A stretch of 64,000 nucleotides of DNA from a virus. The notes below the pieces were generated by a model. The model was not told the DNA's origin. It saw only the letters and a list, made by a program, of their open reading frames with translations, and did no database searches. Each line of letters opens with the position of its first letter. The first letter of the stretch is position 1. The position numbers were made by a program, and so were the translations under genes. The DNA lies in IMG/VR virus record IMGVR_UViG_3300036939_000034, positions 6,324 through 70,323 of that record, one strand, 5' to 3'. This document shows positions 1 to 23,778 of the stretch, one piece after another.

Positions 1-27
1 GAGACTGAGTTATGGCAAAACTGTGAA

Positions 28-252
28 CTACATATCAAAAAAAATTGAGTAGGTTTTGCCGGACTGCTCCCACTCTTTGTTAATGCGAACGAGAATCCAT
101 TTAACGTAATGAGGTGTTCTATATTCCCAGTTCTTTACCGTCCTAGGATCACGTTCAAACAATCCAGCGATCGCACTGCGGAGTTTTGCGCATTCTCTGG
201 ATTGCTCGGAACTGTCAGCAGACCACTTGTTTATAAATTCGTTGAGCGTCAT
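28..252 (-). CDS. Small HTH-like DNA-binding protein
   Basis: IAGLFERDPRTVKNWE resembles an HTH; AGAGG RBS upstream. Confidence 0.5.
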   Translation of the reverse strand: MTLNEFINKWSADSSEQSRECAKLRSAIAGLFERDPRTVKNWEYRTPHYVKWILVRINKEWEQSGKTYSIFFDM

Positions 253-400
253 GATTAAAATGCCTCTTCTGTAGGTAGCTTCTACGGACGGGGTACGCCT
301 TTGGGCGTGGTAGCCGCAAGCCTTCCTAAAACTTTGCGGCTATCTCCCTTGAGTACCTTTATGTAGGATTATACACTTCTGGTGCGGTACTGTATCGCTC

Positions 401-964
401 GTGAGAGAATTGATTAAAAACTCACGAGGAAGAATGACTCAAGACAAGCCGCTAACAAGTCTCAAGCTTCGCCGGTTCACCGTTTCGCTACCTCAGCAAG
501 ACTACGATCGCCTCACCGCACTATGCCTGCGAAACACTGTTTCACGCTCCAGCATGGGCTGGCTGATATTGCATCAATGGTTGGATGAAAACGATCAAGA
601 CTTGCGTGAATACTATATGCAAGTGTCTTATGGGCAGGATGGCAGAGACATTGCAGAGATAGAACACGAAATCTTAGGACAGTACAAAAGACTAGCGAAA
701 TCAGGGGCGGCCGACTTAGAAGGCGAAGACATCACAAGGCTAACTCTCTCTATCCCGTCGTGGGATAACCGCCGACTCATTGGTCATGCCTCGCGCCATA
801 AAGTTTCTAAGTCCGAGATGTGGAGACGAGCTGTGCTTCCCTGGCTAAGATCGCAGGATGATGCGATCGCAAGATTCTGGGAGAATGCTTGCAAGTGGTT
901 AGACAAGCCCCTTGAACAGACAAAAACCTTGCTCATTAATGACTTTGATGAGCAAGGCAGATAA
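401..964 (+). CDS. Protein with two ribbon-helix-helix-like repeats (probable start ATG 434)
   Basis: Internal duplication RRFTVSLPQQDYDRL..VSRS / TRLTLSIPSWDNRRL..VSKS, RHH-like pattern. Confidence 0.5.
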   Translation: MRELIKNSRGRMTQDKPLTSLKLRRFTVSLPQQDYDRLTALCLRNTVSRSSMGWLILHQWLDENDQDLREYYMQVSYGQDGRDIAEIEHEILGQYKRLAKSGAADLEGEDITRLTLSIPSWDNRRLIGHASRHKVSKSEMWRRAVLPWLRSQDDAIARFWENACKWLDKPLEQTKTLLINDFDEQGR

Positions 965-1067
965 CGGGTAATACAAATCGATTCGTTCGTTGATTAAAGC
1001 TCCCCCTTTCGCGACTGACAAATTTTGTCAGTCAGCATCAGCTTTACTAAAAAGCGATCGCACCAAC

Positions 1068-1100
1068 CAAGCCCCTGGGGTCAATCCCTAGGGGTTTTTT
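1068..1100 (+). terminator. Rho-independent terminator
   Basis: CCCCTGGGG-loop-CCCTAGGGG followed by a T-run. Confidence 0.65.
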
Positions 1101-1399
1101 GCTGACGATTATTCACTTCAGAAGAAAGCGGGATAAACAAGAGAGTTCCTATTTCTTGAAGTGCGCGTTTTTCGCAGTTCCAACTATCAAGTTGACTTCG
1201 ATTTTTATTGGTGTTTTAATCTCAAAAAGAAAGGCGATCGCATCCACAACTCATGACAGACCCTAAACATAAAGAATTCATGTTCCAAGTTTATTCCGCC
1301 GCATGGAAAGGAGGTTACGCAACAATTACAGTGAACTGTTAGTAACCCAGCATTTGTAGCGCTTATTTACTGGTAAAATAAAAAGGCGATCGCAAATTA

Positions 1400-2401
1400 T
1401 TGGAGAAGTGCGATCGCATTTTATTATTCATCTCAACAGGAAGAATGGTAGCACAAATGAACGGAATTGAAGTTGTTATCAAATTTGAGAGACTAGTTGT
1501 TGATTCGCGACTAATCGCACAAAGGCTTGACATTCAGCATAAAAACTTTTTGGTAAACATAGAGCAGTACGAAGAAGAGGCTGTTGTAGAAGGGTTTTTA
1601 CCACTCGCGTTTGAAACGCGCCTGGTAAAACGCCCACAGGGAGGGAGTTACGAGGAGCGATGGGCTTGGCTGGATGAAGAGTGGGCTAACTATGCGATGA
1701 CCCTTTCTCGCAATACGCCAGAAGTCAGAGCGGCTAAACGAGGATTAATTAAAGCTTTCTCTACTGCAAAGCAAAAACTGGCACAAAAGCAACCGCAGGT
1801 CGAATTATTGGTTCAGCAACCAGAACCGCTCAACGCAGACATCGAACAACTAGCGGACGAGGTGGTCAAGATTATTTTTGAAATGATTTGGAAATCTGCG
1901 GACTGCATAACCAACGTCAAAGTAAAAACCGCCAGAGAACAGAAGAAACTAAAGAAGGAGTTCGAGAAGGGGATCGACCGCAATTTTCTGTTCTCGATAG
2001 CGACGGAAGCTATTGGCGACGTAGGTCACAACGCCGAACACCAGCACAAGGAAGTTATCAAACAGATTCGGTTGAGAGTCGCTCCCTACAAAGAGTACTT
2101 CGTCTCCAAGCTTCTGGAATGGCAGGAATTGCAAGCGCTTTCGCAACCCACACAGCCGCTACTGCCGCCCACCGTCGTCGTCCTTCGACCCAAGGATGTT
2201 CGCAAAAAGATTGAAGAGTTCCTCGATAGGTTGCAGAGCATGACCCCGGAAGAACAACGGGCTTTGTTCCTCACCGTCCCTAATCTTACTCAGAAAGAGA
2301 AAAGCTCAGGTCGCTTCAGTAGCCGGATAATTGCCAGATACCTTGAGCTGGCACCCGGACAAGATCGGCTGGTGGCGGCGATCATGAGCGAAAGGAATTG
2401 A
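1400..2401 (+). CDS. Rha-family phage regulatory protein with an extra C-terminal domain (true start probably downstream, e.g. ATG 1445 or 1457)
   Basis: VVDSRLIAQRLDIQHKN...MTLSRNTPEVRAAK is a Rha-like N-domain; the C-terminus is shared with ORF 18206. Confidence 0.75.
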   Translation: MEKCDRILLFISTGRMVAQMNGIEVVIKFERLVVDSRLIAQRLDIQHKNFLVNIEQYEEEAVVEGFLPLAFETRLVKRPQGGSYEERWAWLDEEWANYAMTLSRNTPEVRAAKRGLIKAFSTAKQKLAQKQPQVELLVQQPEPLNADIEQLADEVVKIIFEMIWKSADCITNVKVKTAREQKKLKKEFEKGIDRNFLFSIATEAIGDVGHNAEHQHKEVIKQIRLRVAPYKEYFVSKLLEWQELQALSQPTQPLLPPTVVVLRPKDVRKKIEEFLDRLQSMTPEEQRALFLTVPNLTQKEKSSGRFSSRIIARYLELAPGQDRLVAAIMSERN

Positions 2402-2618
2402 TAAACAAGGGCTTGAGAGTGCGGAACAAAACACCTGGAAGACCCCGCTTCCAGCCATCCGTATAATCGAGACAACCTTCTGGAGGAATCAATGACAAAC
2501 AAAGAACATCGGTTTTTCCATTACGACCTTGACACAGGCAAATCAACCCCTGTTGAGCCTGTAAGGGTGGGCAACGTCGAATTTCTAGTACCTGTTCAAA
2601 TTAAAGAGGATTCAGACG

Positions 2619-2966
2619 ATGAAAACGACACAGATCGAAACGACTCAGGTGAAGCTGACCAACAACGGCGAGACTCCTGACTTTACCGTTGTAGCCGTAG
2701 AGCTTTTGGTTGACTCCGTTACTCCCGACTGCCTCAAGGAACTCAAGAACACCGACTTATTGAGCCTTGTTGATACAACAAAAGGGGTAGTTATCGACAA
2801 CGCTAGACCAACCTGGCTTGCGGGCTTCCTAGCCCACGAATTCCATGCAACAGCCTGGGTTGCCGTTAATGACCCTCGACTAGGCGCAGTTGTAATCGAG
2901 TCTCATTCCCCATCACGTCAGGTTTCTCAGGTTCTCGACTGGAAATCTGAACTATACATCTGTTAG
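2619..2966 (+). CDS. csx3: Csx3/Crn3-family cyclic oligoadenylate ring nuclease
   Basis: GVVI..xPxWL..FLAHEFHATAWVAVNDPRLGAVVIESH matches the Csx3 signature (H..H, DPR, SH). Confidence 0.85.
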   Translation: MKTTQIETTQVKLTNNGETPDFTVVAVELLVDSVTPDCLKELKNTDLLSLVDTTKGVVIDNARPTWLAGFLAHEFHATAWVAVNDPRLGAVVIESHSPSRQVSQVLDWKSELYIC

Positions 2967-2984
2967 GTTAATTCCCAAGTATTC

Positions 2985-3302
2985 ATGTCAACCCCCCCAG
3001 CCGCAAAGCTGGGGGTTTATTACGTCAACTTTCTTGAGATCCAAAAGCATCGCTCAATGACCTGCACCCACAACTGGCAACCCCTCTACACCAAACCAAC
3101 TGCGCGAAGTTTTCTGGAAATCTGGGATTCCCTCAACTTGAGCAGTTGGCAGCAGTGCGATGCCTGCCAGCAACTTGGACGCATCCAAGCGAGCGGTAAG
3201 GTGAGGCTTGAGCCAGCGAAGTCGCGAGATCGACGGCTGGCTGATGTCCAAAAATGGAATGACACCATTCGGGTGTACCGCCAAAACCTAGAACGCCTGT
3301 GA
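2985..3302 (+). CDS. Hypothetical protein, possibly Zn-binding (probable start ATG 3057)
   Basis: CTH...CDAC motif. Confidence 0.45.
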   Translation: MSTPPAAKLGVYYVNFLEIQKHRSMTCTHNWQPLYTKPTARSFLEIWDSLNLSSWQQCDACQQLGRIQASGKVRLEPAKSRDRRLADVQKWNDTIRVYRQNLERL

Positions 3303-3902
3303 ATGACTGGCATTGCCTCCCCCCAGCACTACTGCTCGACACTGCCCGTCTGGGTCTAGCGGAGCGTCTACGGCATATTTACCACCTAACACAGCACTGC
3401 CTGGTTCGGGTGATGCGCCTGGGTACAGAAAGCGAAGTTCATCCTTAGCAAACTGGCAGTGTTTTATGAGGTATCGGCAATGTCGCTTGACGTAACTTTC
3501 CTTGCCTACAGTTTCGGCTTTTAGCGCTGGAAATGTCCCTGCTTCAAACACAGCACAAATATCTTCTATATCCCATATTATTTCCTTTAAATAACCAAGA
3601 AAGTCTTCCTCAGAAAGCCTCCTTTTCCTCTCCAACTCAGCCTGTTCTTTCTGTTGACGCCGACGCTCTAGATAAGCTTTCTGCTTCTGTGTTAGCGGGC
3701 GCTTATCTGGGCAGACAGAAGGGTCATATAAGTAGCAATCATAGTCCGGTGTCCGAATCACACCGACAGGCTCCCCCGGTCTTTTGCCTAACTGGGAGAG
3801 CTGCTTTCTGGTTTTGAGGTGTTCGGGAGGTTCGTTTTCACCGAACCCCCACCAGCTGTACTCCTGCATAAAAGCTTGGCTAAGAGCGATCGCAAAAACC
3901 AC
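3288..3902 (-). CDS. Hypothetical phage protein
   Basis: Long ORF in a minus-strand operon with 3938 and 4288. Confidence 0.55.
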   Translation of the reverse strand: MVFAIALSQAFMQEYSWWGFGENEPPEHLKTRKQLSQLGKRPGEPVGVIRTPDYDCYLYDPSVCPDKRPLTQKQKAYLERRRQQKEQAELERKRRLSEEDFLGYLKEIIWDIEDICAVFEAGTFPALKAETVGKESYVKRHCRYLIKHCQFAKDELRFLYPGASPEPGSAVLGGKYAVDAPLDPDGQCRAVVLGGGNASHSQAF

Positions 3903-3937
3903 TTACACCTTAGAGCAGGATAAGCGATCACGTAACT

Positions 3938-4291
3938 TCAGTTGGGTAAAACCCAGTATTTACCCGTCTGGCTATAGGTCGCTTGGTTGTCGAACATCAC
4001 GTAAGGAGCTACAGACAAAACCGTCAAGCTCTGTACGTCCCAACCCTTAAGGGTCTTCTCGCACAACCAAACCCTCTGCCCTTGTTTGAGCTTGTAACCC
4101 GCTACTTGGACAGCTCCTTGAGGAGGCTGGGGCTTTTGGGTTTTCTTCCTTCTGGTCTGACTGGCTTTGAAGGCACCAGCTTTCTTAGGATCGACACTTC
4201 CAGTACCAGAACACAAGAAACAAAATCCAGAATCCAGTGAACTGTGCTTTTGGATGTATTGAGTACCTTTACATTTTGGGCAAGTAATCAT
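3938..4291 (-). CDS. Zn-finger (CxxCxGxG) protein
   Basis: CPKCKG...CFLCSGTG; coupled to the upstream ORF through ATGA overlap. Confidence 0.6.
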   Translation of the reverse strand: MITCPKCKGTQYIQKHSSLDSGFCFLCSGTGSVDPKKAGAFKASQTRRKKTQKPQPPQGAVQVAGYKLKQGQRVWLCEKTLKGWDVQSLTVLSVAPYVMFDNQATYSQTGKYWVLPN

Positions 4292-4572
4292 ACGCTCTCC
4301 TCTTCAACCTTCATCAGCTCCTCTAGCGTCACCTCTCTCCCAGCCCAGACGGAAACAATGCGCTGGAGCTTAATCACATGAACAAAAATCCCACGATCAA
4401 GACGCCCGTCTAGCGCTAGGCGCAGAGTGTTCCGCCCCACCTCGTTCGGCGTCCCCCGCAGCTGTTCATAGACAGAATTAACCGATCGCGCCTCACCCCC
4501 CTCCTTGGGCCAGTACTCACTGATATCCAGGCGAACTCGCATTGACCTTCTCCCTTCCTTGACTGCTAACAC
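4288..4572 (-). CDS. Cro/CI-like HTH regulator
   Basis: VGRNTLRLALDG...VTLEELM pattern; divergent from 4766. Confidence 0.55.
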   Translation of the reverse strand: MLAVKEGRRSMRVRLDISEYWPKEGGEARSVNSVYEQLRGTPNEVGRNTLRLALDGRLDRGIFVHVIKLQRIVSVWAGREVTLEELMKVEEESV

Positions 4573-4765
4573 ATTGTCTCTCCAATTCCTGACACATCAG
4601 CATATTGATAGTCAAAATACTAACACTTGACAGTTGAAAGTCAACTTGCAATGATAGAGAAGTTAGCCCACGCAACGGGCAAACACTAGGGAACTAGAGC
4701 TGCAAACTCCTTACCCAGGTAACACAGCTCTAGCCCTTCCCCTATACACAAGAGGTAATTCAATC

Positions 4766-4948
4766 ATGGCTCAGGACAGACCAAAAGGCGCAATTGATCG
4801 CCAAATCGAGGAAAGCTTAGGGCGATACCAGCAGCTAATTGAGGACAGGCAGCAGATTAGCAACCAAGTGCAACAGTCGGTAGACGAATCCAGGCAAATC
4901 ACTGAACTCCTGAAACAGTCAACAGACGAATCAAAGGGGACACGCTAA
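4766..4948 (+). CDS. Small coiled-coil hypothetical protein
   Basis: GAGG RBS; TAATG coupling to the next ORF. Confidence 0.5.
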   Translation: MAQDRPKGAIDRQIEESLGRYQQLIEDRQQISNQVQQSVDESRQITELLKQSTDESKGTR

Positions 4949-5193
4949 TGCAATACGACATCCCAACAGACATCGCCCAGTCGGACAGGTTAAGAGCAGC
5001 ACTGCAACGGCAGAACCAAGCTGCCGAGTGCGATAAGAAAGACCAGTCACCCCCACCCGGTTGTGGACGCAGGCAGGCAGCAGGCATAGCCCTCCAGTTA
5101 CATTTGCTGGAACGCGCAGAAACAAGTCCATTCGTTAAGGCGAGATTGAAGGAAGCGATCGCCTCTCTAGGAGAAATCCTCACACTCAACTAA
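4948..5193 (+). CDS. Hypothetical protein
   Basis: Translationally coupled to 4766 ORF. Confidence 0.5.
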   Translation: MQYDIPTDIAQSDRLRAALQRQNQAAECDKKDQSPPPGCGRRQAAGIALQLHLLERAETSPFVKARLKEAIASLGEILTLN

Positions 5194-5291
5194 CAAACAA
5201 CCCAGACCTCAGCTTCAGATGACTACCATCTAAGGCTGAGGTCTAAAAATTTGGTTCACAGATATTTCGACTCAAGCTTAAGGAGAAACCG

Positions 5292-6176
5292 ATGTTTCAG
5301 AAAGCCACCAAAGAGAACGTCTACCTCAAAATCGCCCTCGTTGGCAGTCCTGGCGCAGGTAAGACTTACTCTGCTCTTGCCATAGCGGCTCAGTTCACAG
5401 ACAAGATTGCCGTTATTGATACAGAGCGCGGCAGCTCCCGACTGTACGCCGACCAGTTCAGCTTCGATATGTGCGAACTGACAAACCACCAGCCAATCAA
5501 ATATGTAGAGGCAATCAATGCCGCAATCGGCGCTGGATACCAAGCCATCATCATCGATAGCCTCTCTCACGCCTGGTTCGCTGAACTGGAGATGATTCAG
5601 GGGAAAAACACGTTCACGGCATGGGCGAAAGTCCGACCACAAGAGCGGACGCTGATTGAAACCATCATTTCTGCCAAGGCTCACGTTATCGTAACCATGA
5701 GGGAGAAGACCGAGTGGGACACCTCCCAAACTGACGAGTACGGGAAAATGAAGCCCGTGAAGGTCGGCATGAAAGCTGTCCAGTCATCAGGTATTGAGTA
5801 CGAGTTCGACATCGTGGGACGGCTCAATCAAGAGCACGTCCTAGCAATCACCAAAACGAGATGCCCTGCGATCGCTAACCATGCATTCATTCATCCTGGT
5901 CGGCAGCTAGCAACTGAATTAAAGGTGTGGCTAGGGCTGGAAAAACCAGCTCAAGCACCCAGCTTAATTCCCACCCTTCCAGATATCACCCCATCTGAAG
6001 CTAATGAGCGGATTATGAGGGAGCTTAAGCGCATCGGTTGGTCAACATCTGATGCTCAGATGTACTTGAAAAAGGTGTATAACAAAAGCTCTCGATCGCT
6101 GCTGGATGACGACCAGTTACTAAGCTTCCTGACTCATTTGCAGAGCCTTCCCAGCCACACAGGCTCAATAAACTAA
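5292..6176 (+). CDS. AAA_24 / Sak4-like phage recombination ATPase
   Basis: Walker A GSPGAGKT, IDTE, IIDSLSHAW, EYEFD; AAGGAG RBS. Confidence 0.85.
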   Translation: MFQKATKENVYLKIALVGSPGAGKTYSALAIAAQFTDKIAVIDTERGSSRLYADQFSFDMCELTNHQPIKYVEAINAAIGAGYQAIIIDSLSHAWFAELEMIQGKNTFTAWAKVRPQERTLIETIISAKAHVIVTMREKTEWDTSQTDEYGKMKPVKVGMKAVQSSGIEYEFDIVGRLNQEHVLAITKTRCPAIANHAFIHPGRQLATELKVWLGLEKPAQAPSLIPTLPDITPSEANERIMRELKRIGWSTSDAQMYLKKVYNKSSRSLLDDDQLLSFLTHLQSLPSHTGSIN

Positions 6177-6199
6177 CCGAGGCTTTCATCCCTAAACGA

Positions 6200-6235
6200 A
6201 TAACCCCCAGCCAGAAGCTAGGGGGTTTATTTTTG
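6200..6235. terminator. Terminator between convergent genes
   Basis: AACCCCCAGC-loop-GCTAGGGGGTT flanked by A/T runs. Confidence 0.65.
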
Positions 6236-6258
6236 CTAATCTTCACGGGAAGGCTGAT

Positions 6259-7095
6259 CTACAGAGGGAGAGGAAACTCCTGAATCCTTAAGTCCTCCGG
6301 AAACTCATCAATGTCCCCACCCTTGCTATTGGAAAGGTGGAAGTGCGGGAAATGGTCAGGATAGTCTGATTCTGAAAAGACGGGCTTACTACCCAGTTGC
6401 TTCACGAACACGGCCGGTCCATTCGCTGCACTTCGGCACTGACGGACGAGCGATCGCATCCAGTCCACCTGACAAGGTCGCGCCCCCTTGCCCGACTCAC
6501 CACCAATAATTGCCCAGCTCAAATGGTTGACGTAATCACCCAAGCAGACTTCTTCTAGTAGTGGCTCACAGGAGACAAATAACACAAAGGTAGGTATTTG
6601 AGTCAGGTACGGCAAGCGCTCATTCACTACTCGCTGGTTCTCCACTGTGCAGCCCATCCAGAAGTTACTAGGCAGCAAATCCCGCCCACGAGCATTTAGC
6701 CAGTCAGCGCAGGCTTGCAGCATAATATCGGGGCGCTTGGTGAGGAACTGGAATATCAACTTCGAGTTGAACGCCGCATCAAACATCTCGAAGTGCCAAT
6801 CACGAGGCACCCAATCACCAAAAATATCGGTCATGCTGCCGACAAATACCCTCTTCGTCTCCCTAACCCTCGTCCACCGAGCTAACTCTTTGCGGTCTAA
6901 TTCCAGCTTCGGAGCTTCCCCAGCGTATTTGAGGTGTGAGGCAAAGCTGAAGTAACTATTGTTGTTGATTGCTTCGGCGTAACAGTTGGCACAGCCTTCA
7001 GAAATCTTCTGGCACCAGTGCCCGCCTAGTGTGCCATCTTCCTTAAGGACGCGGACGGGGTTAGAAGTAGCCTTGATCCATTGAATTTTACTCAA
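6259..7095 (-). CDS. Phage Gp37/Gp68 (DUF5131) radical-SAM-like protein
   Basis: MSKIQW, CQKISEGCANCYAE, FVGSMTDIF, FLTKRP, SCEPLL, WAIIGGESG, FVKQLG. Confidence 0.9.
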   Translation of the reverse strand: MSKIQWIKATSNPVRVLKEDGTLGGHWCQKISEGCANCYAEAINNNSYFSFASHLKYAGEAPKLELDRKELARWTRVRETKRVFVGSMTDIFGDWVPRDWHFEMFDAAFNSKLIFQFLTKRPDIMLQACADWLNARGRDLLPSNFWMGCTVENQRVVNERLPYLTQIPTFVLFVSCEPLLEEVCLGDYVNHLSWAIIGGESGKGARPCQVDWMRSLVRQCRSAANGPAVFVKQLGSKPVFSESDYPDHFPHFHLSNSKGGDIDEFPEDLRIQEFPLPL

Positions 7096-7412
7096 AACGA
7101 CACCTCCGTATTTCGTTTTTGCTGCAATATCGCCTCTGCAAATAGAACCCCGCTCAAGAAGTCTCTTAGTTGAAAACCCAGCAATTCAAGGTAGGCTTTC
7201 TTGCTATTGGATAGCTGGAAGATAATTCTGTAAACACAGTCTTCCTCAGGGTTTTCGCCCTGAAAAGTACCAACATCGACAGCGGAACAGCTGATGATCA
7301 GGTTATGAGCAATTGCTTTCTCTATCAGCTCAGGAATTGAATCACATAACTTAAGTCCTGGTAGGTCTTCTTCTAACTTGGTAGAACCAGGAAACTGAAC
7401 AATCTTGCCCAT
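7092..7412 (-). CDS. Hypothetical protein
   Basis: GAGG RBS; overlaps the start of the DUF5131 gene. Confidence 0.55.
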   Translation of the reverse strand: MGKIVQFPGSTKLEEDLPGLKLCDSIPELIEKAIAHNLIISCSAVDVGTFQGENPEEDCVYRIIFQLSNSKKAYLELLGFQLRDFLSGVLFAEAILQQKRNTEVSF

Positions 7413-7530
7413 TACAATACCTCTACTTTCGTGACTGAATTGGGGAAACTTCGGGCAGTGACTACCCGAAGTTAGGTTGATGAGTATGAGTGGAGTCTCG
7501 TGGTTGAGGAAGCGATCGCACTTGTAGAAA

Positions 7531-7878
7531 TTAATCGCTCAAGAAGTCGCTAATCTCACCATCAAGAGAAACGACTTTCTCTTTAAGGTCTTCGTCCAGT
7601 TCCTCACTCCCCAAGCCAATCAAGATGTCCTGGGCTTTTTCTAGGTAACCTACAGCCTGACGAAGACTACGTTTCAGGCTAGAAACATTCTCCTCCAAAC
7701 GCTTTAGCCGATACTCGGTGGAGCGCTCCTCAACTGCCTTCAAGATACAATCAACAATCTCGCCGATCTCAGCGTAATTGTCGCGCGAAAGTGGCGAATT
7801 CGCCGTAACCTCGAAGTAGTTAGCAAGCAGGCATTTAGCGCGTTCTTCTGTTGAGCGATAGCTGTTGTATGGGTTCAT
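7531..7878 (-). CDS. Coiled-coil hypothetical protein
   Basis: ORF in a minus-strand operon. Confidence 0.55.
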   Translation of the reverse strand: MNPYNSYRSTEERAKCLLANYFEVTANSPLSRDNYAEIGEIVDCILKAVEERSTEYRLKRLEENVSSLKRSLRQAVGYLEKAQDILIGLGSEELDEDLKEKVVSLDGEISDFLSD

Positions 7879-8070
7879 AGTTAATACGGTAATAGCTCGT
7901 CGTGAAGGCGATTAAGCGCACTTTTTGCATAGTGCTGGAGATCTGCCAAATCCCTCAGCAACTCTGCGTCTTCTTCTGGATCTAACTCCTAGAATTGAAC
8001 AACATTTTCAATCCGTTACTCAATAAGAGTCAGCTGGTTTCGCAGTTCCAACAGCTCGATAATTCGAGGG

Positions 8071-8610
8071 CTATCTATTGTTACCACAGGAGCCTCCGAC
8101 TGCGTCTTGAACAGCCTTGGCGTGATAGCAGCTGCGCCCGTACCGCCCTGCTTTACAACTACATCGGCTGTAGTTGGGGGAGTGCATCAGTAGGTAAGGG
8201 TTACCCGTTTCCCCAATGACCTGCCAAACAGAGTGGAAACCTTTGGTATCTAGGAGGGTAACTGCCTGAACTTGGCGACTACCCTTTCCATCTGCGCGAA
8301 TCGCGCATATGGACTGTTCCTCGATGTACTGATCTAGTTCCGCCTGCGCCTCAACCTGGATCGCTTCGCCCTTGATCTCCTCAACCAGCTGGCGGAAGTA
8401 GTCTTTTCCCAAGCTGTAAAGAGCATAGGGGGTAACTACAACCACCGTCTCATCCCAGGCTTGTAGCCCCTTGATTTGGCCAGGGGTAATCTCTGCGCCA
8501 AACACCTTGAACATTATTTGGCTGATAATCTCGTTCTCTCGATCTGTAGTGGGTATCATTGATTTACCTCTTTTGGGGAAGAAGCGATCGCTCAGGAGTT
8601 TGTCAGGCAT
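8071..8610 (-). CDS. SWIM zinc-finger protein (probable start ATG 8559)
   Basis: CSCKAGRYGRSCYHAKAV = CxC..CxH SWIM motif. Confidence 0.7.
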   Translation of the reverse strand: MPDKLLSDRFFPKRGKSMIPTTDRENEIISQIMFKVFGAEITPGQIKGLQAWDETVVVVTPYALYSLGKDYFRQLVEEIKGEAIQVEAQAELDQYIEEQSICAIRADGKGSRQVQAVTLLDTKGFHSVWQVIGETGNPYLLMHSPNYSRCSCKAGRYGRSCYHAKAVQDAVGGSCGNNR

Positions 8611-8640
8611 CAGGGCGATCGCTTTCTCTGTACTTACTAA

Positions 8641-8690
8641 TGTACACTATTAGCTCGTAGTGTGTAAACCATCAACTAGTAGTGTACAGT
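8641..8690. promoter_or_regulatory. Operator-like inverted repeats between divergent genes
   Basis: TGTACACTA...TAGTGTGTA...TAGTGTACA upstream of an XRE gene. Confidence 0.45.
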
Positions 8691-8730
8691 AAAACTATTA
8701 ATTGACGGTTTACTCTATGGAGGTAACTGT

Positions 8731-8994
8731 GTGCTAGCGGCAAAAATGCGGATTAGACAGATTAGGGAGATTGAAGTTGAAGGACTGGGGCAGCGTATCA
8801 AGCAGGTTCGCTTAAGTTCCAGCAAATCCCTAGAGCAAATATGCAATGAAGTTAAGGTATCGCGGACTTATTGGTACGACATCGAAAAGGAAACCCTTAA
8901 AGGTGCGCTTTCTGTGGAAAAGCTCCGAAAAATTGAAGAAGTGCTAGGTGTAGACTTCGGCGTGAGGCTTGAGGAGGATACGGAAAATGCCTGA
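8731..8994 (+). CDS. XRE-family HTH regulator
   Basis: LGQRIKQVR..SLEQICNEVKVSRTYWYDIE...LRKIEEVLGV. Confidence 0.8.
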   Translation: MLAAKMRIRQIREIEVEGLGQRIKQVRLSSSKSLEQICNEVKVSRTYWYDIEKETLKGALSVEKLRKIEEVLGVDFGVRLEEDTENA

Positions 8995-9631
8995 CTTATC
9001 AGTTTTCAAGGGTGACGACGACGTGGAGATCATCATTGACCAACAGACGGGTGAAAGCTTTTGCTCTGTGTCTGGTTATGCTCGAATGAGCGGACGATCG
9101 CAGCAAGCCATCAGCAAAAGGGTAAAAAAGCTAGACAACCCAACCGTCATTAAAAACGTTCAGATCGATACAGGATATGGCATCAAGCTACACAACCTAA
9201 TCACAGAGGACTTAATAGCGGACTGGATAATTAAGGACAACCCTGCGAAAGCAAAACAGTTGCTTAAAGCAGGGGTTAGAGTTTTCCTCCACAAAACAGC
9301 CGGATATCAAATCACTTCGACGGCTGTTCCTACTCAACTTCAACCTGACCTCACCCAACCCCCAGAACTTCCTCTTGTCATGCCGACAACAGAAGAGATC
9401 TCGCATCTCAAGGAGATTCAGATAACACGTCCGTGGGAAAAAGCGGAGATGGAAGCTTGGGCAAATGGGAACACAACCTCTCATGCCAGCAGCGAGCTGA
9501 ACGGTCACCTAGAAAAATCTGGCTTCGGTCGCGCAAGGGAAGCAGCGCGAGAGTATCGCCGATCACTGGGAAGCTGGCGACGGGCAATGCTTCGGCAAAA
9601 CCCAGCAACCATGCGAAGACTGAAGGGTTGA
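8969..9631 (+). CDS. Phage antirepressor-like DNA-binding protein (probable start ATG 8987)
   Basis: TGESFCSVSGYARMSG..AISKR, AGVRVFLHKTAGY. Confidence 0.55.
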   Translation: MRRIRKMPDLSVFKGDDDVEIIIDQQTGESFCSVSGYARMSGRSQQAISKRVKKLDNPTVIKNVQIDTGYGIKLHNLITEDLIADWIIKDNPAKAKQLLKAGVRVFLHKTAGYQITSTAVPTQLQPDLTQPPELPLVMPTTEEISHLKEIQITRPWEKAEMEAWANGNTTSHASSELNGHLEKSGFGRAREAAREYRRSLGSWRRAMLRQNPATMRRLKG

Positions 9632-9673
9632 GCGTGGACACGATCATCATTAACAAATACTAAACAGGAATAA

Positions 9674-10132
9674 ATGGCTAGAACTAAATTCACTCCTCAC
9701 GAGGAAGATCTGAAAGCTATCAAGCTTTTCCTGAGAACCGTGTCATGGGGTAACGAATGCACCCTATGCACCCTGCTTGATGGCTCTGCCGCCTACTTGT
9801 TAATTCCCAAGCTCTACATACTATGTCCATGCACCTGGGAGAAATATAACGAGTTCAAGGTAGTTATCAAGGAAAGAGCCGCCCTGCATGGCGTGAGAGC
9901 TGGCGTCATCATCACCAATGAGACGGATAAGCAAAATTGTGAGCGAATATGGTGGGATGCTCATCGAAACTCAATCATCGTGCGCTGGCTATCCGTAAAA
10001 AATGAGTTAGACGCCACAGACCTAATGATGCAGCAGCTTGAGGGGATTGACTGGGAAAAATCACTACTGAACGTCATCAACGACGGTGTAGACGCTAAAC
10101 CTGTTTTTGAATGGGAAGGCGATCGCCCTTAG
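9674..10132 (+). CDS. Hypothetical protein
   Basis: ORF with AGGA RBS. Confidence 0.55.
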   Translation: MARTKFTPHEEDLKAIKLFLRTVSWGNECTLCTLLDGSAAYLLIPKLYILCPCTWEKYNEFKVVIKERAALHGVRAGVIITNETDKQNCERIWWDAHRNSIIVRWLSVKNELDATDLMMQQLEGIDWEKSLLNVINDGVDAKPVFEWEGDRP

Positions 10133-10814
10133 AACTTTTTACGGAAAGTTCCGCAAAAATCCACCTCACCATTCAGTCAAGCCTCACTAACATCAAAGCG
10201 ATCGCATTGTGCGAGAAATCAGCCACGAGGCAACGCCCTCACATCGACTGGAGGCGATCGCATTAATCTACCAGAAATACTCAATCCTGATCGCGTACAA
10301 CCTTTTGCCTAAACGTCGAAGCTTGCTCACCTCTCGCATAAGCTATCTGCATCAGACCCCACTCAATTTCGGAAGCGGAAACTCCGCTACTCCCAACAAG
10401 AACCTTAAGGCGCTTGCTGGAAACAAACAACGCTTCTCTAGATCTTTCTGTTAATTGCCAAGCCTTGCAAGTGCTTTTGATTCTTCCGCCAGTTTTTGGC
10501 ATTAGCTATTACCACCCCTCCTCTAGCAACCAGAGTACAGCCAAAAATTGCGCAACAGAGCGATATCCGTGATTTCACGGATGGATGCTCACCACCAATT
10601 CGGCATTCTAGTCAAAAGGTGCCAAGGTTCGGTCGGTGCATGATGGAAGTACAAACGGCAGTCCAAAGAATTTTTTTTGATCGAGGAGCATGGTGGGGGC
10701 GAGTATCTACTCCCTTGTGGAGGGAAACGCTCGGTCCCTATCCTGAACGGCACCTAGCGGTAGAAGCAGTAAGTCTTCTACGATTGAGGGGTAACAATAC
10801 TTTTACACCTCCCA

Positions 10815-11120
10815 ATGGGAGAAATAACACTCACTGAAGCACTGCAAGCGGTAAATAGCTCCCTTCAAGCCCTAACCCTAGTGTTGCAGCGTCTTGAAGA
10901 GGATCGCGCTTGGCTGCCCATCAAGGAAGCAGCTCCCCGACTGAACGTAAGCGATCGCTGGATTCTGGAGCGCATTCGTAAACGGGCGTACAAGCACGGC
11001 GTTCATTTCGTGAATACGTCGGACGGCGATCGCCCCAACTACCTCGTGTCAGTGGCAGCCATCCGCAAGGAACTAGCCAAGTCACCAGAGAAGCGAAGGT
11101 CAGGGATTGTCCCGAAATAG
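10815..11120 (+). CDS. xis: Excisionase-like HTH protein
   Basis: WLPIKEAAPRLNVSDRWI...GVHF; converges on the integrase. Confidence 0.65.
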   Translation: MGEITLTEALQAVNSSLQALTLVLQRLEEDRAWLPIKEAAPRLNVSDRWILERIRKRAYKHGVHFVNTSDGDRPNYLVSVAAIRKELAKSPEKRRSGIVPK

Positions 11121-12182
11121 CCGCTCAAACGCCTCCTCGTGAATCTTCTCAGAAATCCATCGGTGATAAATCTGAGTGTGAATTCCAACGGAATGACCCA
11201 TCTGCTGAGAAGCTAGGGTCAAATCAAGCCCTAAATTAAGGGTTCTTACTGCCCAAGCATGGCGCAGGTCATAGGGACGAAACGGGCAACCCGATCGCTT
11301 GAAGTACTGCTGAACACGGTTCCCGAACTCACTATTACTTCCCGCTGTCACGGCGGGAAGTTCCACCTCCCACAACTCCCACTCTTTCCACCAATCCAAC
11401 GGAAACGGAAAAACCAATCGCGCCCCCGTCTTTCCATCTAATACCCTCAATCCCTTCTCCCCCTGCCTCAACCGCTCCAAATCCAGGTGAAAGACCTCGT
11501 GAGGACGTAAGCCATAAACCGCCAACATCCCGTACACCCACTGCCAAGCAGGGTTAACAAGGTGCGATCGCCACTCCTCAATCACCGAATCCTCTGGCAA
11601 TTCACGCGCTTGAGCCTTAGCGGCTGAATAGCTGCCCCGAAAAGCCTTTAGGTCTACGTCTATCCCCGCAAACTTCGCCAAGGCTCCAAGTGCCATACAG
11701 TAGCGCACTCGTGTGCGGGTGTCGGGAGAAGTGAGTGCGATCGCTTCCAGCACCAGCTCCTTGGTCAGCGCAGCATCCGGGTCAAGGTGGCTAAAAGTCA
11801 GTCGATAGTCCTTCTCGTAAGTCGTCTCAGACTTTGGATTACGTTGCCGCCGGTTGAAGTAATCCGCCTCAAACTCCCTGACCCAATCCGCCACGAGCTT
11901 AGGCTTAACCACCTCAACCTTGAGGTACGGTTCCCAGGAAAACTGCTTCATTGCCAGGGCAGCCCCTAGTGCGATCGCCTCTGCCTTCGCTCGTTTAAAC
12001 CCGGATGGATTGGCATAAATCCCTAGGGCTATTTCCTGCTGGTGCGATCGCTCTACCTTACTCCCTGGCTTCGGTGGGAGAGTCGCCCGTAGGTACAACC
12101 TATTCCCTTTTTGTCGTACTTGGACGCCGATGTTAGCGCTTTTTAGCTGAGTATTAACTTCCCCTAAATAATCCTTTCCCAA
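11100..12182 (-). CDS. int: Tyrosine recombinase/integrase
   Basis: YGLRPHE, KTG, YDLRHAWA, MGHS...Y catalytic residues; cyanobacterial-type N-terminus. Confidence 0.95.
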   Translation of the reverse strand: MGKDYLGEVNTQLKSANIGVQVRQKGNRLYLRATLPPKPGSKVERSHQQEIALGIYANPSGFKRAKAEAIALGAALAMKQFSWEPYLKVEVVKPKLVADWVREFEADYFNRRQRNPKSETTYEKDYRLTFSHLDPDAALTKELVLEAIALTSPDTRTRVRYCMALGALAKFAGIDVDLKAFRGSYSAAKAQARELPEDSVIEEWRSHLVNPAWQWVYGMLAVYGLRPHEVFHLDLERLRQGEKGLRVLDGKTGARLVFPFPLDWWKEWELWEVELPAVTAGSNSEFGNRVQQYFKRSGCPFRPYDLRHAWAVRTLNLGLDLTLASQQMGHSVGIHTQIYHRWISEKIHEEAFERLFRDNP

Positions 12183-12321
12183 GCTTCCCTATTCTTACCC
12201 TTACGCGCCTCTGTAGCATGGGGGATTATATCAGGTATTAAAGTAGCTAAAAAAATACTTTAATCTCCACGTATCTCGCTCACGCGGATTCTCTCTGCCT
12301 TCACTGTTAACTGTGTCCTGC

Positions 12322-12364
12322 TTGTGGTTCCACCACTCGCGGGTTCGAGTCCCGTCGTTCGCCC
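12322..12364 (+). other. attP core: 3' half of tRNA-His(GUG)
   Basis: TTGTGGTTCCACCACTCGCGGGTTCGAGTCCCGTCGTTCGCCC contains the anticodon loop, T-arm and acceptor 3' strand; no 5' half; adjacent to int. Confidence 0.85.
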
Positions 12365-12416
12365 TCATTTCCCGCCTTGGCTATAAGGCTTCCCTAAAAA
12401 CTGTCCTGTACCTAAG

Positions 12417-13073
12417 TTAGCCCCACATCACTAGCTTAGGGGAGCCGTTTCCCAGTTGCTCCCAAAGTTCAACAGAACGGAGTTCGTAGGTGCGTGTGGT
12501 GTCCAGGTGTGGAACTTCACCCTCAAATTCCGCCTGGTACAACACGGCAGCCAAGGGAGAAGCCCCTGCGATCGAAAGCTGTACACGGGTTAAGTCCTTC
12601 TCACCCTGCATGGTCGCCAATTGGTAGATATAGCGATCTACCCCCGCAAAGACAAATTCTTCTTCTTGCCAGCCTCCGCGCACAAGGGCAGAAGCTTCAA
12701 TTAAATTCCGTAGCCGTCGCGCCCCCTTTGGCTCCAGAAGGGGTAAATACTCTTGTGTCATATCACTCACCTGCAACTTTCCCATTGCAATTTGAAGTAA
12801 CTCAGATTCAGAGTATCTCGTAAAAGGAGCCAGGTATTTTAGCCTCCAAAAATTCTTGCCTCCACTGCCTCTCTTGGGGTCACCGGCGGCCAGGAGATAG
12901 TTCAAAGAATGAATATCCAAGACATTATCCTCAGCAGCTTCACAAACGCGGGCAGCAAACGCCACTTTCGTCAGCTTGCTCTCATCTAAGGCTTTTTGAA
13001 TAACCTGCCCTAGTTGCTGCAATCCCTCTTCTGTAAAGGGATAGAGGATTCGTTCGCGTGTACGTGCTGTCAT
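12417..13073 (-). CDS. Putative immunity repressor (HTH-like)
   Basis: Divergent from a small DNA-binding gene, next to int/attP; LGQVIQKAL..LTKVAFAARV. Confidence 0.5.
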   Translation of the reverse strand: MTARTRERILYPFTEEGLQQLGQVIQKALDESKLTKVAFAARVCEAAEDNVLDIHSLNYLLAAGDPKRGSGGKNFWRLKYLAPFTRYSESELLQIAMGKLQVSDMTQEYLPLLEPKGARRLRNLIEASALVRGGWQEEEFVFAGVDRYIYQLATMQGEKDLTRVQLSIAGASPLAAVLYQAEFEGEVPHLDTTRTYELRSVELWEQLGNGSPKLVMWG

Positions 13074-13109
13074 TGATTTTTACCTTTTTGCGCTGTTCCT
13101 ATTTTCGCA

Positions 13110-13180
13110 TCTCCGCCATTTGCAAAGTTTACAAATAGCAAGTATATTAATATATAGCAATTCGCAAAGTTTGCTAAAGG
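13110..13180. promoter_or_regulatory. Putative lysis/lysogeny switch region
   Basis: AT-rich divergent intergenic with repeated GCAAAGTTT. Confidence 0.5.
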
Positions 13181-13187
13181 AAAGAAA

Positions 13188-13430
13188 TTGAGTAGCAACT
13201 ATACAACCGCCCGAGTAGAGCGATCGCTCTACTTCCAATTTGTTGATCGTGTTCGACGGCTAGAGGGAAGCGTTTCCCTATCAGAAGTAATGGCACGGCT
13301 AATAAAGCGTTACATGAGTGAGACTGAACATCTTATCACCCAGGTACAGCAAGAAGCTCTGACTGAAGTGACTCCGTGCTTCGGCAAAGCTCAGCAACAA
13401 TTTGAGAAGCCTCAGAAAGGAGTGGCTTGA
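13188..13430 (+). CDS. Small RHH/Cro-like regulator
   Basis: TTARVERSLY..F....SLSEVMARLIKRY RHH-like pattern. Confidence 0.5.
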   Translation: MSSNYTTARVERSLYFQFVDRVRRLEGSVSLSEVMARLIKRYMSETEHLITQVQQEALTEVTPCFGKAQQQFEKPQKGVA

Positions 13431-13792
13431 TGACAGGCAACTTCATTCCAGATCTGCGCCCACTATCCCTCCCAGAGTGCAAGCACTGCCAAGAATATCT
13501 TGCCCGTTGGCAGGGGGGGGTTGCCCTCCACGCCAAAACAGCAGAGCAACTGGCTCTAGCCAATGCCAGTGGCATCGAAAAAGACCAGGAAATTCAGGCA
13601 TTAAGAATGGGCTTGATAGAGGCTGTAGCTTCCATCCGCGCCCTTGGCGGCAAAGTTGACCCCAAGCTTCGGCAACTAGCTGGAATCCAGGCTGGAAAAG
13701 GAAAAGTTAGCTCTTTGGCACGTCGCCGTCACTCCAAAGCAGTGCTTCGGCAAGACTCAGCAGGTATGGGAGAGCAAGGATGCAAACCCTAA
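13427..13792 (+). CDS. Hypothetical protein
   Basis: Coupled ORF in the early right operon. Confidence 0.5.
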   Translation: MMTGNFIPDLRPLSLPECKHCQEYLARWQGGVALHAKTAEQLALANASGIEKDQEIQALRMGLIEAVASIRALGGKVDPKLRQLAGIQAGKGKVSSLARRRHSKAVLRQDSAGMGEQGCKP

Positions 13793-14103
13793 CACGGAAG
13801 GTTTGGCCATCAAGGCAAAGTCCTAAAAAGCAAGCCGTGTTCAGAGCGCTAGAACACAACGGTTACTTGGTACGCCAAGACTACAGGAACCCTCACATCT
13901 ACGTCGTCTTGGCATCGTCCAAGAACTTCGGCTGCGAGAACTGGAGAACGACTCAGCCCATCGCCTTACTCTCTTTACCTGTAGGCAAGGGGATCTGGAA
14001 GCTGGTTCCCCATACTGACATCAAAGCGTCAGGTACTCCCTTTACCTACCTCAAACGCCTCTTAGAAGCAGTAGGAGGACAAGGTCTTGCCATTCTGGCT
14101 TGA
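13780..14103 (+). CDS. Hypothetical protein
   Basis: Coupled ORF. Confidence 0.5.
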   Translation: MQTLTRKVWPSRQSPKKQAVFRALEHNGYLVRQDYRNPHIYVVLASSKNFGCENWRTTQPIALLSLPVGKGIWKLVPHTDIKASGTPFTYLKRLLEAVGGQGLAILA

Positions 14104-14332
14104 TGAACAGAAAATCAGCCGACTCTATCAGCTGGCTGAACAGGGCGTTTCGAGGAAGGCGATCGCGGAGCGCTTAGGAATTCGTACAAGCACAGTAGGT
14201 GACTACCTTCGTAAGCGCAAGAAGCACATCACCAGCCTTTCTGAAGGGGGAATGCAACCTCCCGAAATCAGCAAACAATTGCGAATCCCTCTCAAGTCTG
14301 TAGAAAGCTATCTCTCTTCAAGGAGAATTTGA
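14087..14332 (+). CDS. Tandem HTH protein
   Basis: GVSRKAIAERLGIRTSTV and EISKQLRIPLKSVESY. Confidence 0.7.
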   Translation: MPFWLDEQKISRLYQLAEQGVSRKAIAERLGIRTSTVGDYLRKRKKHITSLSEGGMQPPEISKQLRIPLKSVESYLSSRRI

Positions 14333-14793
14333 TGCTTATCACCAAAATCAAAGTCCAAAAAATTGGGATTACCATCACCTACACCCAGCCAACCGAGACT
14401 GGAGTCCCCGACACTATCACCGTATTCAGCGAAGAGGACGCACGTCCAGCATTTTACGACGCCCTCAACAGCCTGGTTGATGATGTCGTCAACCTTTGCC
14501 TTCTCGACTTAGAAGGATGGGAGAACGTCGCGGTGAGTGGCGTAACCCTTAAGCACAAGGAAGAGATGGGAGTGGTAATCACTGCTCAGAACAAGGTTGA
14601 GAACGTCAATTCTCCCGTCATCATTAACACCCCCTATTTTATCGCTGACGCAAACCTGACCAAGAAATTGGAAGAGGTTTCTGAGGAGGCAGTGGCTTTC
14701 GTCAGAGGTGCTCGCGCTCAAGCAAGTTTGTTTGACGGAAACGACGGAAAGCTGGATGAAATTGCCAAAGAGTTGGCGGAGGCGATGTCCTGA
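14329..14793 (+). CDS. Conserved phage hypothetical protein
   Basis: AGGAG RBS; C-terminal ARAQASLF motif common in phage early proteins. Confidence 0.6.
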   Translation: MMLITKIKVQKIGITITYTQPTETGVPDTITVFSEEDARPAFYDALNSLVDDVVNLCLLDLEGWENVAVSGVTLKHKEEMGVVITAQNKVENVNSPVIINTPYFIADANLTKKLEEVSEEAVAFVRGARAQASLFDGNDGKLDEIAKELAEAMS

Positions 14794-15087
14794 TGAGCAA
14801 GACACGCCGACGCTGGAAGCATAGACCCGCCAGATTTCCGGATAGCCCAAAACACATTGCCGAACCAAAACCTAGGCTGTGGAATCACAGAGGGAAACTA
14901 AGTGCGCGATTTGCGCACGTACAGGATTCCTTTATGGAGGCAGGGTGATGAGTCGCAGCATCATTTCTCACAAGCTGGTTAAAACTCGCAAGACTCACCA
15001 ATGCTGGGGCTGCACGAAAGAGTTTCCTTCAGGTTTCATGGCACTGATAAAGCTTTTCACCTTAGTCACTGAGATGGAGGAATAGGA

Positions 15088-17624: not shown

Positions 17625-17627
17625 TCA

Positions 17628-18209
17628 ATGACACAGCACTCTGTAAACAAGTTCAAACTTCTCGAAGAAATTCGTCACTTGAACCAAAAAGAACAACAAC
17701 TAGCAGGACAAAAAGCGGCAATTCACCACGATCAAATATGCTTCCTATTCAGTCTGGGGCAGCGCATTCAGCAGCTCTATGAGGCTTGTGAGTATGGCGA
17801 GTACAAGGCGATGCTCACTCGAATTTCATTTAGCTGGGCAGACGCCGATCGCAAGCGCAAGGTTTGGTTGACGTTTGGTAAATACCGTAACGAGCCGTGG
17901 ATTTCCAATTTTGGGAAATCAGCGCTTCAGGAAATGGCTTACGGCAAAAAACCCGATTTAGAGATTATTGAACAGGCGATCGCCTTAGCAAAAAGCGGCG
18001 TAAAAGTTGGCGTTTCCTGGGTCTGGGCTGTGCGGGATAAAAAGCGTTCCTGTGTGCCGTTGGACGCCAATGCGGTCAGGAATTCAGCCATCAGGAAAAC
18101 TCGCTTGTCCGCGAAAGTGCGTCAGCTGGTTCATGCCGTTGTTGATGAAATTGGCGAGGAGGAGTTGTTAAAGGTGCTCCAGAGCGTTCGAGAGGCACGG
18201 AGGGCATGA
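17628..18209 (+). CDS. Hypothetical protein
   Basis: Coupled ORF. Confidence 0.55.
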   Translation: MTQHSVNKFKLLEEIRHLNQKEQQLAGQKAAIHHDQICFLFSLGQRIQQLYEACEYGEYKAMLTRISFSWADADRKRKVWLTFGKYRNEPWISNFGKSALQEMAYGKKPDLEIIEQAIALAKSGVKVGVSWVWAVRDKKRSCVPLDANAVRNSAIRKTRLSAKVRQLVHAVVDEIGEEELLKVLQSVREARRA

Positions 18210-23435: not shown

Positions 23436-23778
23436 CCCCGGTATTCTTTCTAATTTGATTGAACTCCTTGAGATGGAAGAGCATGAAATCTTCTCGGCTA
23501 AGAGTGGAAGCCAAGGCATCGAAATCGCGCAGGAAAGGTTACCGGATCTAATCATGTGTGACCTGATGATTCCAGGCGGGGATGGCTTTGTTGTACTGCG
23601 ATCGCTCCGCAATGATTCAACGACCGCTAGAATCCCATTTATATTCCTCTCTGCTGCTGCCGACAAAAAGAGTCTAGCCCAAGGTCTGAGTCTGGGGGCG
23701 GATGGCTACATCACCAAACCATTTAAGTCTGAACTATTGCTAAATGCGATCGCTCAGGCTTTGATCAAGAAAGTCTGA
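23407..23778 (+). CDS. Single-domain CheY-like response regulator
   Basis: ILLIEDD, PDLIMCDLMIPGGDG, FLSA, YITKPF. Confidence 0.92.
   Translation: MAKILLIEDDPGILSNLIELLEMEEHEIFSAKSGSQGIEIAQERLPDLIMCDLMIPGGDGFVVLRSLRNDSTTARIPFIFLSAAADKKSLAQGLSLGADGYITKPFKSELLLNAIAQALIKKV

Follow-up and report, generated by a model that had tools for sequence, protein, structure and literature searches.

A viral genome recovered in IMG/VR (record IMGVR_UViG_3300036939_000034) carries a gene, csx3, for a bona fide homologue of the cellular ring nuclease Csx3/Crn3. Its family, fold, conserved residues, genomic context and recurrence in viruses, together with the prevalence of Cas10 and Csx3 matches in the inferred host clade, make the protein a credible candidate anti-CRISPR. 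It probably acts as a cyclic tetra-adenylate (cA4) ring nuclease directed against type III CRISPR immunity. We analysed a window of 64,000 nucleotides, which corresponds to bases 6324-70323 of the 70,323-bp record, and all positions are given in window numbering. The record is a linear virus with a CheckV completeness of 82%.

The phage protein matches the Pfam model PF09620 (Cas_csx3) with 71 bits against a cut-off of 21 (E 7.6e-20), its sole Pfam match at E <= 10. It also matches the NCBIfam equivalog TIGR02579, named 'ring nuclease Crn3/Csx3', with 83.5 bits against a cut-off of 55.4 and over model positions 1-83 of 83. This hidden Markov model (HMM) search upholds the family assignment made in an initial annotation of the sequence, and the motif quoted there, HEFHATAWVAVNDPRLGAVVIESH, is present at residues 73-96 of the 115-residue open reading frame (ORF). 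Among PDB sequences, phmmer retrieves only Csx3 of Archaeoglobus fulgidus (AfCsx3), as five distinct sequences with E-values of 3.5e-17 to 9.4e-16.

An AlphaFold2 model built from a 46-sequence alignment has a mean predicted local distance difference test score (pLDDT) of 91.2 and a predicted template-modelling (TM) score (pTM) of 0.85. The ten best Foldseek matches of this model in the PDB are all AfCsx3, with target-normalised TM scores of 0.76-0.83, sequence identities of 36-41% and root-mean-square deviations of 1.9-4.1 Å, mostly about 2 Å. The next fold matches, at ranks 14 and 15, are to the cA4-binding domain of Cat1 (PDB 9mue and 9mud); at E <= 0.01 Foldseek returns no PDB structure beyond Csx3 and Cat1. 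The match to Cat1 agrees with a 2026 preprint, which assigns the so-called CARF domain of Cat1 to the Csx3 family.

AfCsx3 (AF_1864; PDB 3WZG, 3WZH, 3WZI, 6VJG, 6YUD) is about 40% identical to the phage protein. The phage protein has about 20 additional N-terminal residues, predicted to form two strands, and a C-terminal WKSELYI tail. The gene for AfCsx3 sits in a type III CRISPR locus, whereas phage csx3 is without cas genes. Curated NCBIfam Cas models find no family besides Csx3 over cut-off in the 84 ORFs of the whole record, and Pfam shows none either; the single match to a Cas-named model is the HNH domain of an endonuclease, with 29.8 bits against a cut-off of 375. The record contains no CRISPR-like array and no repeat family that is array-like. 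The gene is thus virus-encoded and without its cellular CRISPR system, with phage hallmark genes on both sides, a phage attachment site (attP) and an integrase, and the initial remark that no cas operon lies nearby holds over the entire 70,323 bp.

Catalytic residues and the cA4-contact loop

Residue columns were compared across 99 sequences of 85-150 residues, namely the query and 98 of 152 other proteins; the 54 proteins outside this length range, which are fusions and fragments, were left out of the alignment. In AfCsx3, H57 and H60 are reported as likely Mn2+ ligands, and D69, R71 and H80 as required for cA4 cleavage (PMC7371418). A HMMER alignment maps these residues to H73, H76, D85, R87 and H96 of the phage protein, so that all five are retained. 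The same residue occupies the five catalytic columns (H, H, D, R, H) in 90, 94, 94, 90 and 96 of the 99 family sequences, respectively.

The contacts of AfCsx3 to cA4 are described as I22, S44, G45, R46, I49 and R71, of which G45 and I49 are termed 'absolutely conserved', and the loop contacts are made mostly by main-chain atoms (PMC7371418). The corresponding loop of the phage protein reads D60-N61-A62-R63-P64-T65-W66, against S-G-R-G/A-P-I/V-W in the family. Where AfCsx3 has S44-G45-R46-G47, the phage has D-N-A-R, and I49 is replaced by threonine. The initial annotation had remarked that the usual GRxPxWL motif reads NARPTWL here (residues 61-67), and rightly so: the aligned columns hold glycine in 95 of 99 sequences and arginine in 74, with alanine in four at the latter. 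The column that follows R46 holds arginine in the query alone (R63), and the I49 column holds isoleucine or valine in 82 of 99 sequences, with T65 in the query. From the alignment, the predicted catalytic machinery is intact and the ligand-binding loop is atypical, and the protein is a divergent homologue.

Viral recurrence, host clade and origin of the gene

Csx3 recurs in viral genomes. A scan of IMG/VR with the phage protein as single query finds no relatives; an alignment-based scan finds a Csx3 domain in 12 further contigs of 7-272 kb, all of which are confirmed with an HMM made from the alignment. Neighbourhoods were taken as ORFs of at least 70 residues within 6 kb on either side, 180 ORFs in total, and compared with Pfam at E <= 1e-4. 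Cas families other than Csx3 occur in none of the 12 viral loci. The neighbours are DNA methylase, M15 peptidase, primase, RecA-like protein, ribonucleotide reductase, tape-measure protein, dUTPase, barstar, terminase, single-stranded DNA-binding protein, exonucleases and helicases, and in one contig (L009) a Tad2-like protein. As a positive control, we used the ten cellular loci nearest to P0154, one of the closest relatives of the phage protein (77 ORFs of at least 80 residues). Eight of these ten contain Cas families (Cmr1-6, Cas10, Csx1, Cas6, Cas1/2, Cas_APE2256 and Cas_NE0113), and the two without are contigs of 3.4 and 5.8 kb. The difference between 0 of 13 viral and 8 of 10 cellular loci gives a Fisher p of 9e-5, for loci that are phylogenetically non-independent and ORF limits that differ slightly.

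All 11 intact copies in the further viral contigs keep the catalytic H, H, D, R and H, with glutamate in place of aspartate in one contig (L010). A quick maximum-likelihood tree of 126 rows and 105 columns is poorly resolved; on it the viral label changes at least four times, and at least two of these changes are forced by well-supported branches. Csx3 has therefore been acquired by phages more than once.

Some of the viral loci have features of their own. In L009, a jumbo phage contig of 272,602 bp, a Tad2-like anti-Thoeris domain (5513-6109) and a solo Csx3 (10025-10318) are encoded 4 kb apart, which suggests an anti-defence neighbourhood. In L007 (9404-10285), the Csx3 domain forms the C-terminal third of a 293-residue protein whose N-terminal 190 residues or so belong to no family. 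The related contig L012 (9404-10201) has the same layout, and its copy ends after the second catalytic histidine.

The host is indicated by four independent lines of evidence to be a filamentous cyanobacterium of the Coleofasciculaceae, Symploca or Allocoleopsis kind. Among the best 120 relatives of the phage DnaB, all 17 organism names are cyanobacterial, with Allocoleopsis sp. at 73% and Symploca sp. at 64-66% identity, and all 49 reference-genome loci with a DnaB relative are cyanobacterial. Each of nine host-family genomes contains one site with 100% identity to the sequence at 12322-12365, and a tenth genome (G013) matches with 98% over 51 nt. In G013 and in a further genome, G049, the site falls on the 3' part of tRNA-His and spans anticodon loop to acceptor end. 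We assign 12322-12365 as the attP core because it matches the 3' part of the host tRNA-His(GTG). In run X1, a biocrust metagenome that is the one public DNA run listed with the phage and may be its source sample, the unitigs of this 44-nt core reach 345-419x coverage, whereas the phage stands at about 10x, and loose ends leave the core at 12322 and 12365. No RNA run is listed with the locus. The octamer GCGATCGC, which we take to be the HIP1 palindrome that is a signature of cyanobacterial genomes, occurs 103 times in the window against 0.78 expected. The best Csx3 cluster (P0154, 51% identical) contains one sequence named by NCBI from a Coleofasciculaceae metagenome-assembled genome (MAG). 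The HIP1 saturation of the phage is on a par with that of a host genome. The capsid protein was tried as a host marker and is uninformative, with distant matches of 34-36% to Rhodobacteraceae and Moraxella elements.

In the host clade that we infer, type III loci with Csx3 appear to be frequent. As host family we took the family to which G001 belongs, the reference genome whose DnaB locus is closest to that of the phage, and compared 41 of its genomes. The Cas10/Cmr2 palm model exceeds its cut-off in 26 of these 41 and matches 31 at E <= 0.001, the five additional genomes including the unpublished G040; the model is not fully specific, as it also matches 6 of 14 control genomes including Escherichia coli. 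Csx3 is over cut-off in 16 of the 41 genomes, and in nine a Cas10 and a Csx3 match lie within 4.5 kb of each other on one contig.

The four closest relatives of the phage protein (P0004/P0154, P0002 and P0005) are 51-56% identical to it over nearly the full length. They share the N-terminal strand region and the C-terminal WKSEL motif with the query, which groups with them weakly (Shimodaira-Hasegawa-like approximate likelihood-ratio test, 80). A metagenome scan for these relatives yields six contigs, each of 7 kb or less. The type III-linked Csx3 proteins of the host family are 41-48% identical over a 66-residue core. Host-order Csx3 proteins and Csx3-AAA ATPase fusions have the same domain as the phage protein, with identities of 41-53% in the core only; unlike phage Csx3, they either are linked to CRISPR loci or carry some 200 additional fused residues, and their loop is the canonical G-R/Q. 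In 251 host-order genomes the best match reaches 53% over residues 40-107, in fusion proteins of about 310 residues. A scan of reference-genome contigs gives no match with phage Csx3 as query and at best 53% with P0154. The initial annotation had proposed a gene captured from the host. Relatives at 51-56%, with one sequence of the best cluster named from a Coleofasciculaceae MAG, give this loose support, but recent capture from a sampled host is unsupported because no donor closer than 53% is found in the 251 genomes. By these comparisons, the phage gene has diverged and yet remained intact.

The phage genome and the csx3 neighbourhood

Pfam and PHROGs assignments over 73-74 ORFs describe a temperate contractile-tailed phage. 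Genes other than those in Table 1 encode an HNH endonuclease, large terminase, protease, scaffold, major capsid, sheath, baseplate and fibre proteins. No informative Pfam match lies in the 6.4 kb of the record ahead of the window, and the phage has no tRNA gene.

Table 1 Features of the window, in window positions
Feature	Position	Strand	Assignment and remarks
RHH (CopG-type, ribbon-helix-helix) DNA-binding protein	401-964	+	PF01402 RHH_1 E 3.7e-05; first gene of same-strand run
Rha-family phage regulatory protein	1400-2401	+	PF09669 Phage_pRha E 6.3e-08; PHROG Rha-like/anti-repressor/transcriptional regulator
Shine-Dalgarno-like AAGAGGA	2604-2610	+	8 nt before the csx3 ATG; read from the sequence
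csx3/crn3 homologue	2619-2966	+	ATG at 2619, stop at 2964-2966; 115 aa
Terminator-like hairpin	2994-3015	+	8 pairs (7 G-C), then TTTATT; 28 nt past the csx3 stop
Sak4-like annealing protein	5292-6176		Pfam/PHROGs
DUF5131 protein	6259-7095	-	PF07505 E 2e-49; adjoins the Sak4-like gene
Tyrosine integrase	11100-12182	-	PF00589 E 6.8e-08; phrog_1 E 4.6e-18
attP core	12322-12365	+	3' 44 nt of host tRNA-His(GTG); 140 nt upstream of integrase
DnaB	16266-17624		Pfam/PHROGs
1363-aa protein	18206-22297	+	Last ~180 residues Dam-type N6-adenine methyltransferase (PF05869, phrog_111)
Stand-alone response-regulator receiver domain	23386-23778	+	PF00072 E 1e-25; between replication and packaging genes
1043-aa fusion protein	27797-30928	+	Mu-type portal + 'InPase' domain PF18823 + Mu F-like minor head

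The csx3 start is backed by the Shine-Dalgarno-like sequence and also by the alignment to P0004, which begins at query residue 5. A consensus scan finds no promoter-like site on the + strand in the 217-nt gap between the Rha gene and csx3 (2401-2619), and csx3 may be co-transcribed with the upstream Rha gene. The hairpin downstream of csx3 is present in both the minimum free energy and the centroid fold (-18.3 kcal/mol, z -1.8). The next confident genes (3288-4572) are on the - strand and converge on csx3. An Rfam search at E <= 1 over 1-14000 gives only three matches, at chance level. The GC content of csx3 is 0.494, with 0.526 at third codon positions (GC3), and that of the phage 0.498. Codon-usage cosine was dropped as an origin marker, its values following gene length.

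Two related elements, the IMG/VR contig L094 and a prophage-like stretch in a 130-kb contig of genome G038, carry a 67-70% identical copy of the gene at 3288-3902 with other genes beside it and no Csx3. We assign csx3 to a variable accessory region because these elements share the neighbouring gene and lack csx3.

Several further genes stand out. The DUF5131 protein faintly resembles TIGR04471, 'radical SAM mobile pair protein A', with 37 bits where the cut-off is 355. The first 1150 or so residues of the 1363-residue protein match only a small PHROG of unknown function, and the protein may be an anti-restriction giant protein. Matches to PF18823, the 'InPase' domain of the 1043-residue fusion, also occur in DarB-like proteins and in huge virion proteins. 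Five tandem 24-nt units (86% matches) lie at 15447-15564, inside the ORF 15088-16284 directly upstream of DnaB; they are iteron-like, and a replication origin within the initiator gene is possible.

Proposed role against type III CRISPR immunity

For the phage protein we infer an activity, substrate, oligomeric state, timing and effect from its homologues. By homology with AfCsx3, dimers would stack head-to-tail around cA4 (PMC7371418, PMC8284326). The active site would be shared, with D85 and R87 of one dimer facing H73, H76 and H96 with Mn2+ of the next, and the cA4 ring would be cut into linear di-adenylates. When the type III complex of an infected cell recognises phage RNA and cA4 is made, phage Csx3 would remove it. 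Csx1-type and other CARF effectors would then be left without their activator and the immune response blunted, an anti-CRISPR effect by signal destruction like that of AcrIII-1. Csx3 of Methanosarcina mazei is reported to have partly relieved Csx1-mediated immunity in E. coli (PMC7371418).

A number of points weigh against this reading, most directly in the loop. Four of the six cA4-contact positions of AfCsx3 are changed in the phage protein (S44 to D60, G45 to N61, R46 to A62 and I49 to T65), and asparagine at the G45 column occurs in only two of the 99 sequences, the query and P0134. Binding or specificity may consequently be altered. The canonical G-R loop is present in all 11 intact copies of the other viral contigs, and that of the query differs. 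It is because the cA4-contact loop is atypical that we hold an active cA4 nuclease to be probable and not more. The cooperative mechanism of Csx3 requires high protein levels. The gene is also dispensable, since the two related elements go without it. On the host side, the closest genome, the incomplete MAG G001, has neither a Cas10 nor a Csx3 match, and the control matches of the Cas10 palm model count here as well. A blastn comparison of 1-20000 with 52 host-family genomes, in which five candidates per genome were scored and which is insensitive to spacers, gives no spacer-like match. In the E. coli assay, moreover, relief by Csx3 is reported as weaker than that by AcrIII-1 (PMC7371418). A match of 28-36 nt (89-97%) between 19973-20008 and four contigs of G028 was considered as a spacer target and rejected as a short dispersed repeat.

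The departures at G45, R46 and I49 and the unique R63 would also fit a protein of the same fold with changed ligand handling, which either forms a cA4-binding filament sponge with little turnover or is specific for cA3, cA6 or the signals of cyclic oligonucleotide-based antiphage signalling systems (CBASS); it would still act in anti-defence. P0134, the only other homologue with asparagine at the G45 column, is without both of the H57/H60 histidines, the inactive AfCsx3 variant H60A is reported to form fibres with cA4 (PMC7371418), and Csx15 has been described as a good sponge and slow nuclease. However, a pure sponge would need none of the five catalytic residues, all of which are intact here, and the loop contacts that are altered are mostly main-chain in AfCsx3. 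The account of Csx15 itself also deems sponging poor against the large amounts of cyclic oligoadenylate (cOA) made by type III systems. We regard changed ligand handling as rather unlikely. The same holds, to our mind, for a retuned Csx3, in which the N61-A62-R63 loop would change binding or rate and, with the gene expressed in the prophage state, a type III-positive cyanobacterium would come to tolerate the lysogen; the chances of this are small. If true, a retuned prophage Csx3 would be a phage-owned 'dimmer' of CRISPR signalling and not a simple early anti-CRISPR.

A role on the side of lysogeny does not depend on the loop. Prophage Csx3 could damp type III autoimmunity set off by leaky transcription of the prophage and thereby let a CRISPR-positive host tolerate the lysogen; such damping is described as the cellular role of Crn3. 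Integrase and tRNA-His attP mark the phage as temperate, and csx3 has its own terminator-like hairpin in an accessory region of mixed gene orientation that would form the integrase-proximal end after integration. Related elements without csx3 are what is seen with moron-like accessory genes. Yet the gene before csx3 on the same strand encodes a Rha-type regulator, and genes of this type are usually lytic-phase; the consensus scan also detects no promoter of its own. We consider the lysogeny role unlikely. The two related elements without csx3 would equally suit a passenger gene that was taken up with host DNA, has no role in the phage and is not yet lost. Against this, the frame is intact with all catalytic residues and a good ribosome-binding site, GC and GC3 are phage-like, and 11 of the 12 other viral copies are intact. 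With no host donor above 53% in the 251 order genomes, the acquisition is not a recent one and the phage has retained the gene, which leaves a mere passenger very improbable. An RNA nuclease, for instance a Mn-dependent deadenylase of phage or host RNA metabolism unrelated to CRISPR, is equally hard to credit. The earliest description of AfCsx3 was as an RNA deadenylase, with a crystal structure that contains an RNA tetraloop (Yan et al. 2015, as related in citing papers), and the altered loop could disfavour cA4. Later work is reported to have moved the family to cA4 cleavage, however, the residues kept by the phage protein are those of the cA4 site, and solo phage Csx3 beside anti-defence genes, as with the Tad2-like domain of L009, fits counter-defence better.

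The destruction of cA4 by a phage Csx3, which we favour, would join a short list of viral ring nucleases. AcrIII-1/Crn2 (DUF1874), the first ring-nuclease anti-CRISPR known from viruses, has the same proposed role, viral destruction of cA4, but is reported to have an unrelated fold and to be metal-independent, and phage Csx3 has no DUF1874 match. The initial annotation had named AcrIII-1 as the established viral ring nuclease of a different family. The difference in family stands; the rest is dated, as AcrIII-2, Crn4b, Csx16, Csx20 and, rarely, Csx15 are also reported from phage or viral genomes. According to the paper on AcrIII-2, a viral SAVED protein, AcrIII-1 was until then the sole ring nuclease identified in viruses (PMC12751052). 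Crn4b, Csx20, Csx16, AcrIII-2 and Csx15 follow the same pattern in other families, a cellular cOA-degrading family appearing as a solo phage gene. Hoikkala et al. 2025 (PMC12409355) searched 28,114 phage genomes with HMMs for Crn1-3, Csx15, Csx16 and Csx20; the article, its supplementary tables apart, gives AcrIII-1/Crn2 in 36 phage genomes, Csx20 in four and Csx16 in two and does not mention Crn3. Crn4b is given for 11 of 28,137 phage genomes (PMC12830947), and a 2026 preprint describes rare Csx15 in IMG/VR; none of these accounts, as far as read without supplementary tables, names Crn3 among its phage hits.

We found no report of a virus-encoded Csx3/Crn3 in a full-text literature search, which did not extend to supplementary tables, where an entry for Crn3 is possible. 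Among 50,697 GenBank phage records, neither a tblastn search with phage Csx3 nor a megablast search with 1-20000 gives a match, and the BFVD contains no structural match at E <= 0.001. What appears to be new, judged from sequence, is a known cellular ring-nuclease family in the known viral role of signal destruction, seen to date in uncultivated viral contigs alone.

That viruses can counter type III immunity by destroying its second messenger is established, but for few protein families; Crn3 belongs to the original three ring-nuclease families of cells. Solo Csx3 is present in 13 viral contigs and in none of them beside cas genes, which suggests a further anti-CRISPR family that escapes phage collections built on isolates. 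These phage proteins offer a natural test of a question posed in the eLife paper on Csx3 (PMC7371418), why a fast cooperative enzyme serves the cell, and how well it would serve a virus. Since filamentous cyanobacteria of biocrusts and marine habitats are rich in type III systems, a phage-borne Csx3 may also be relevant to the dynamics between these hosts and their phages.

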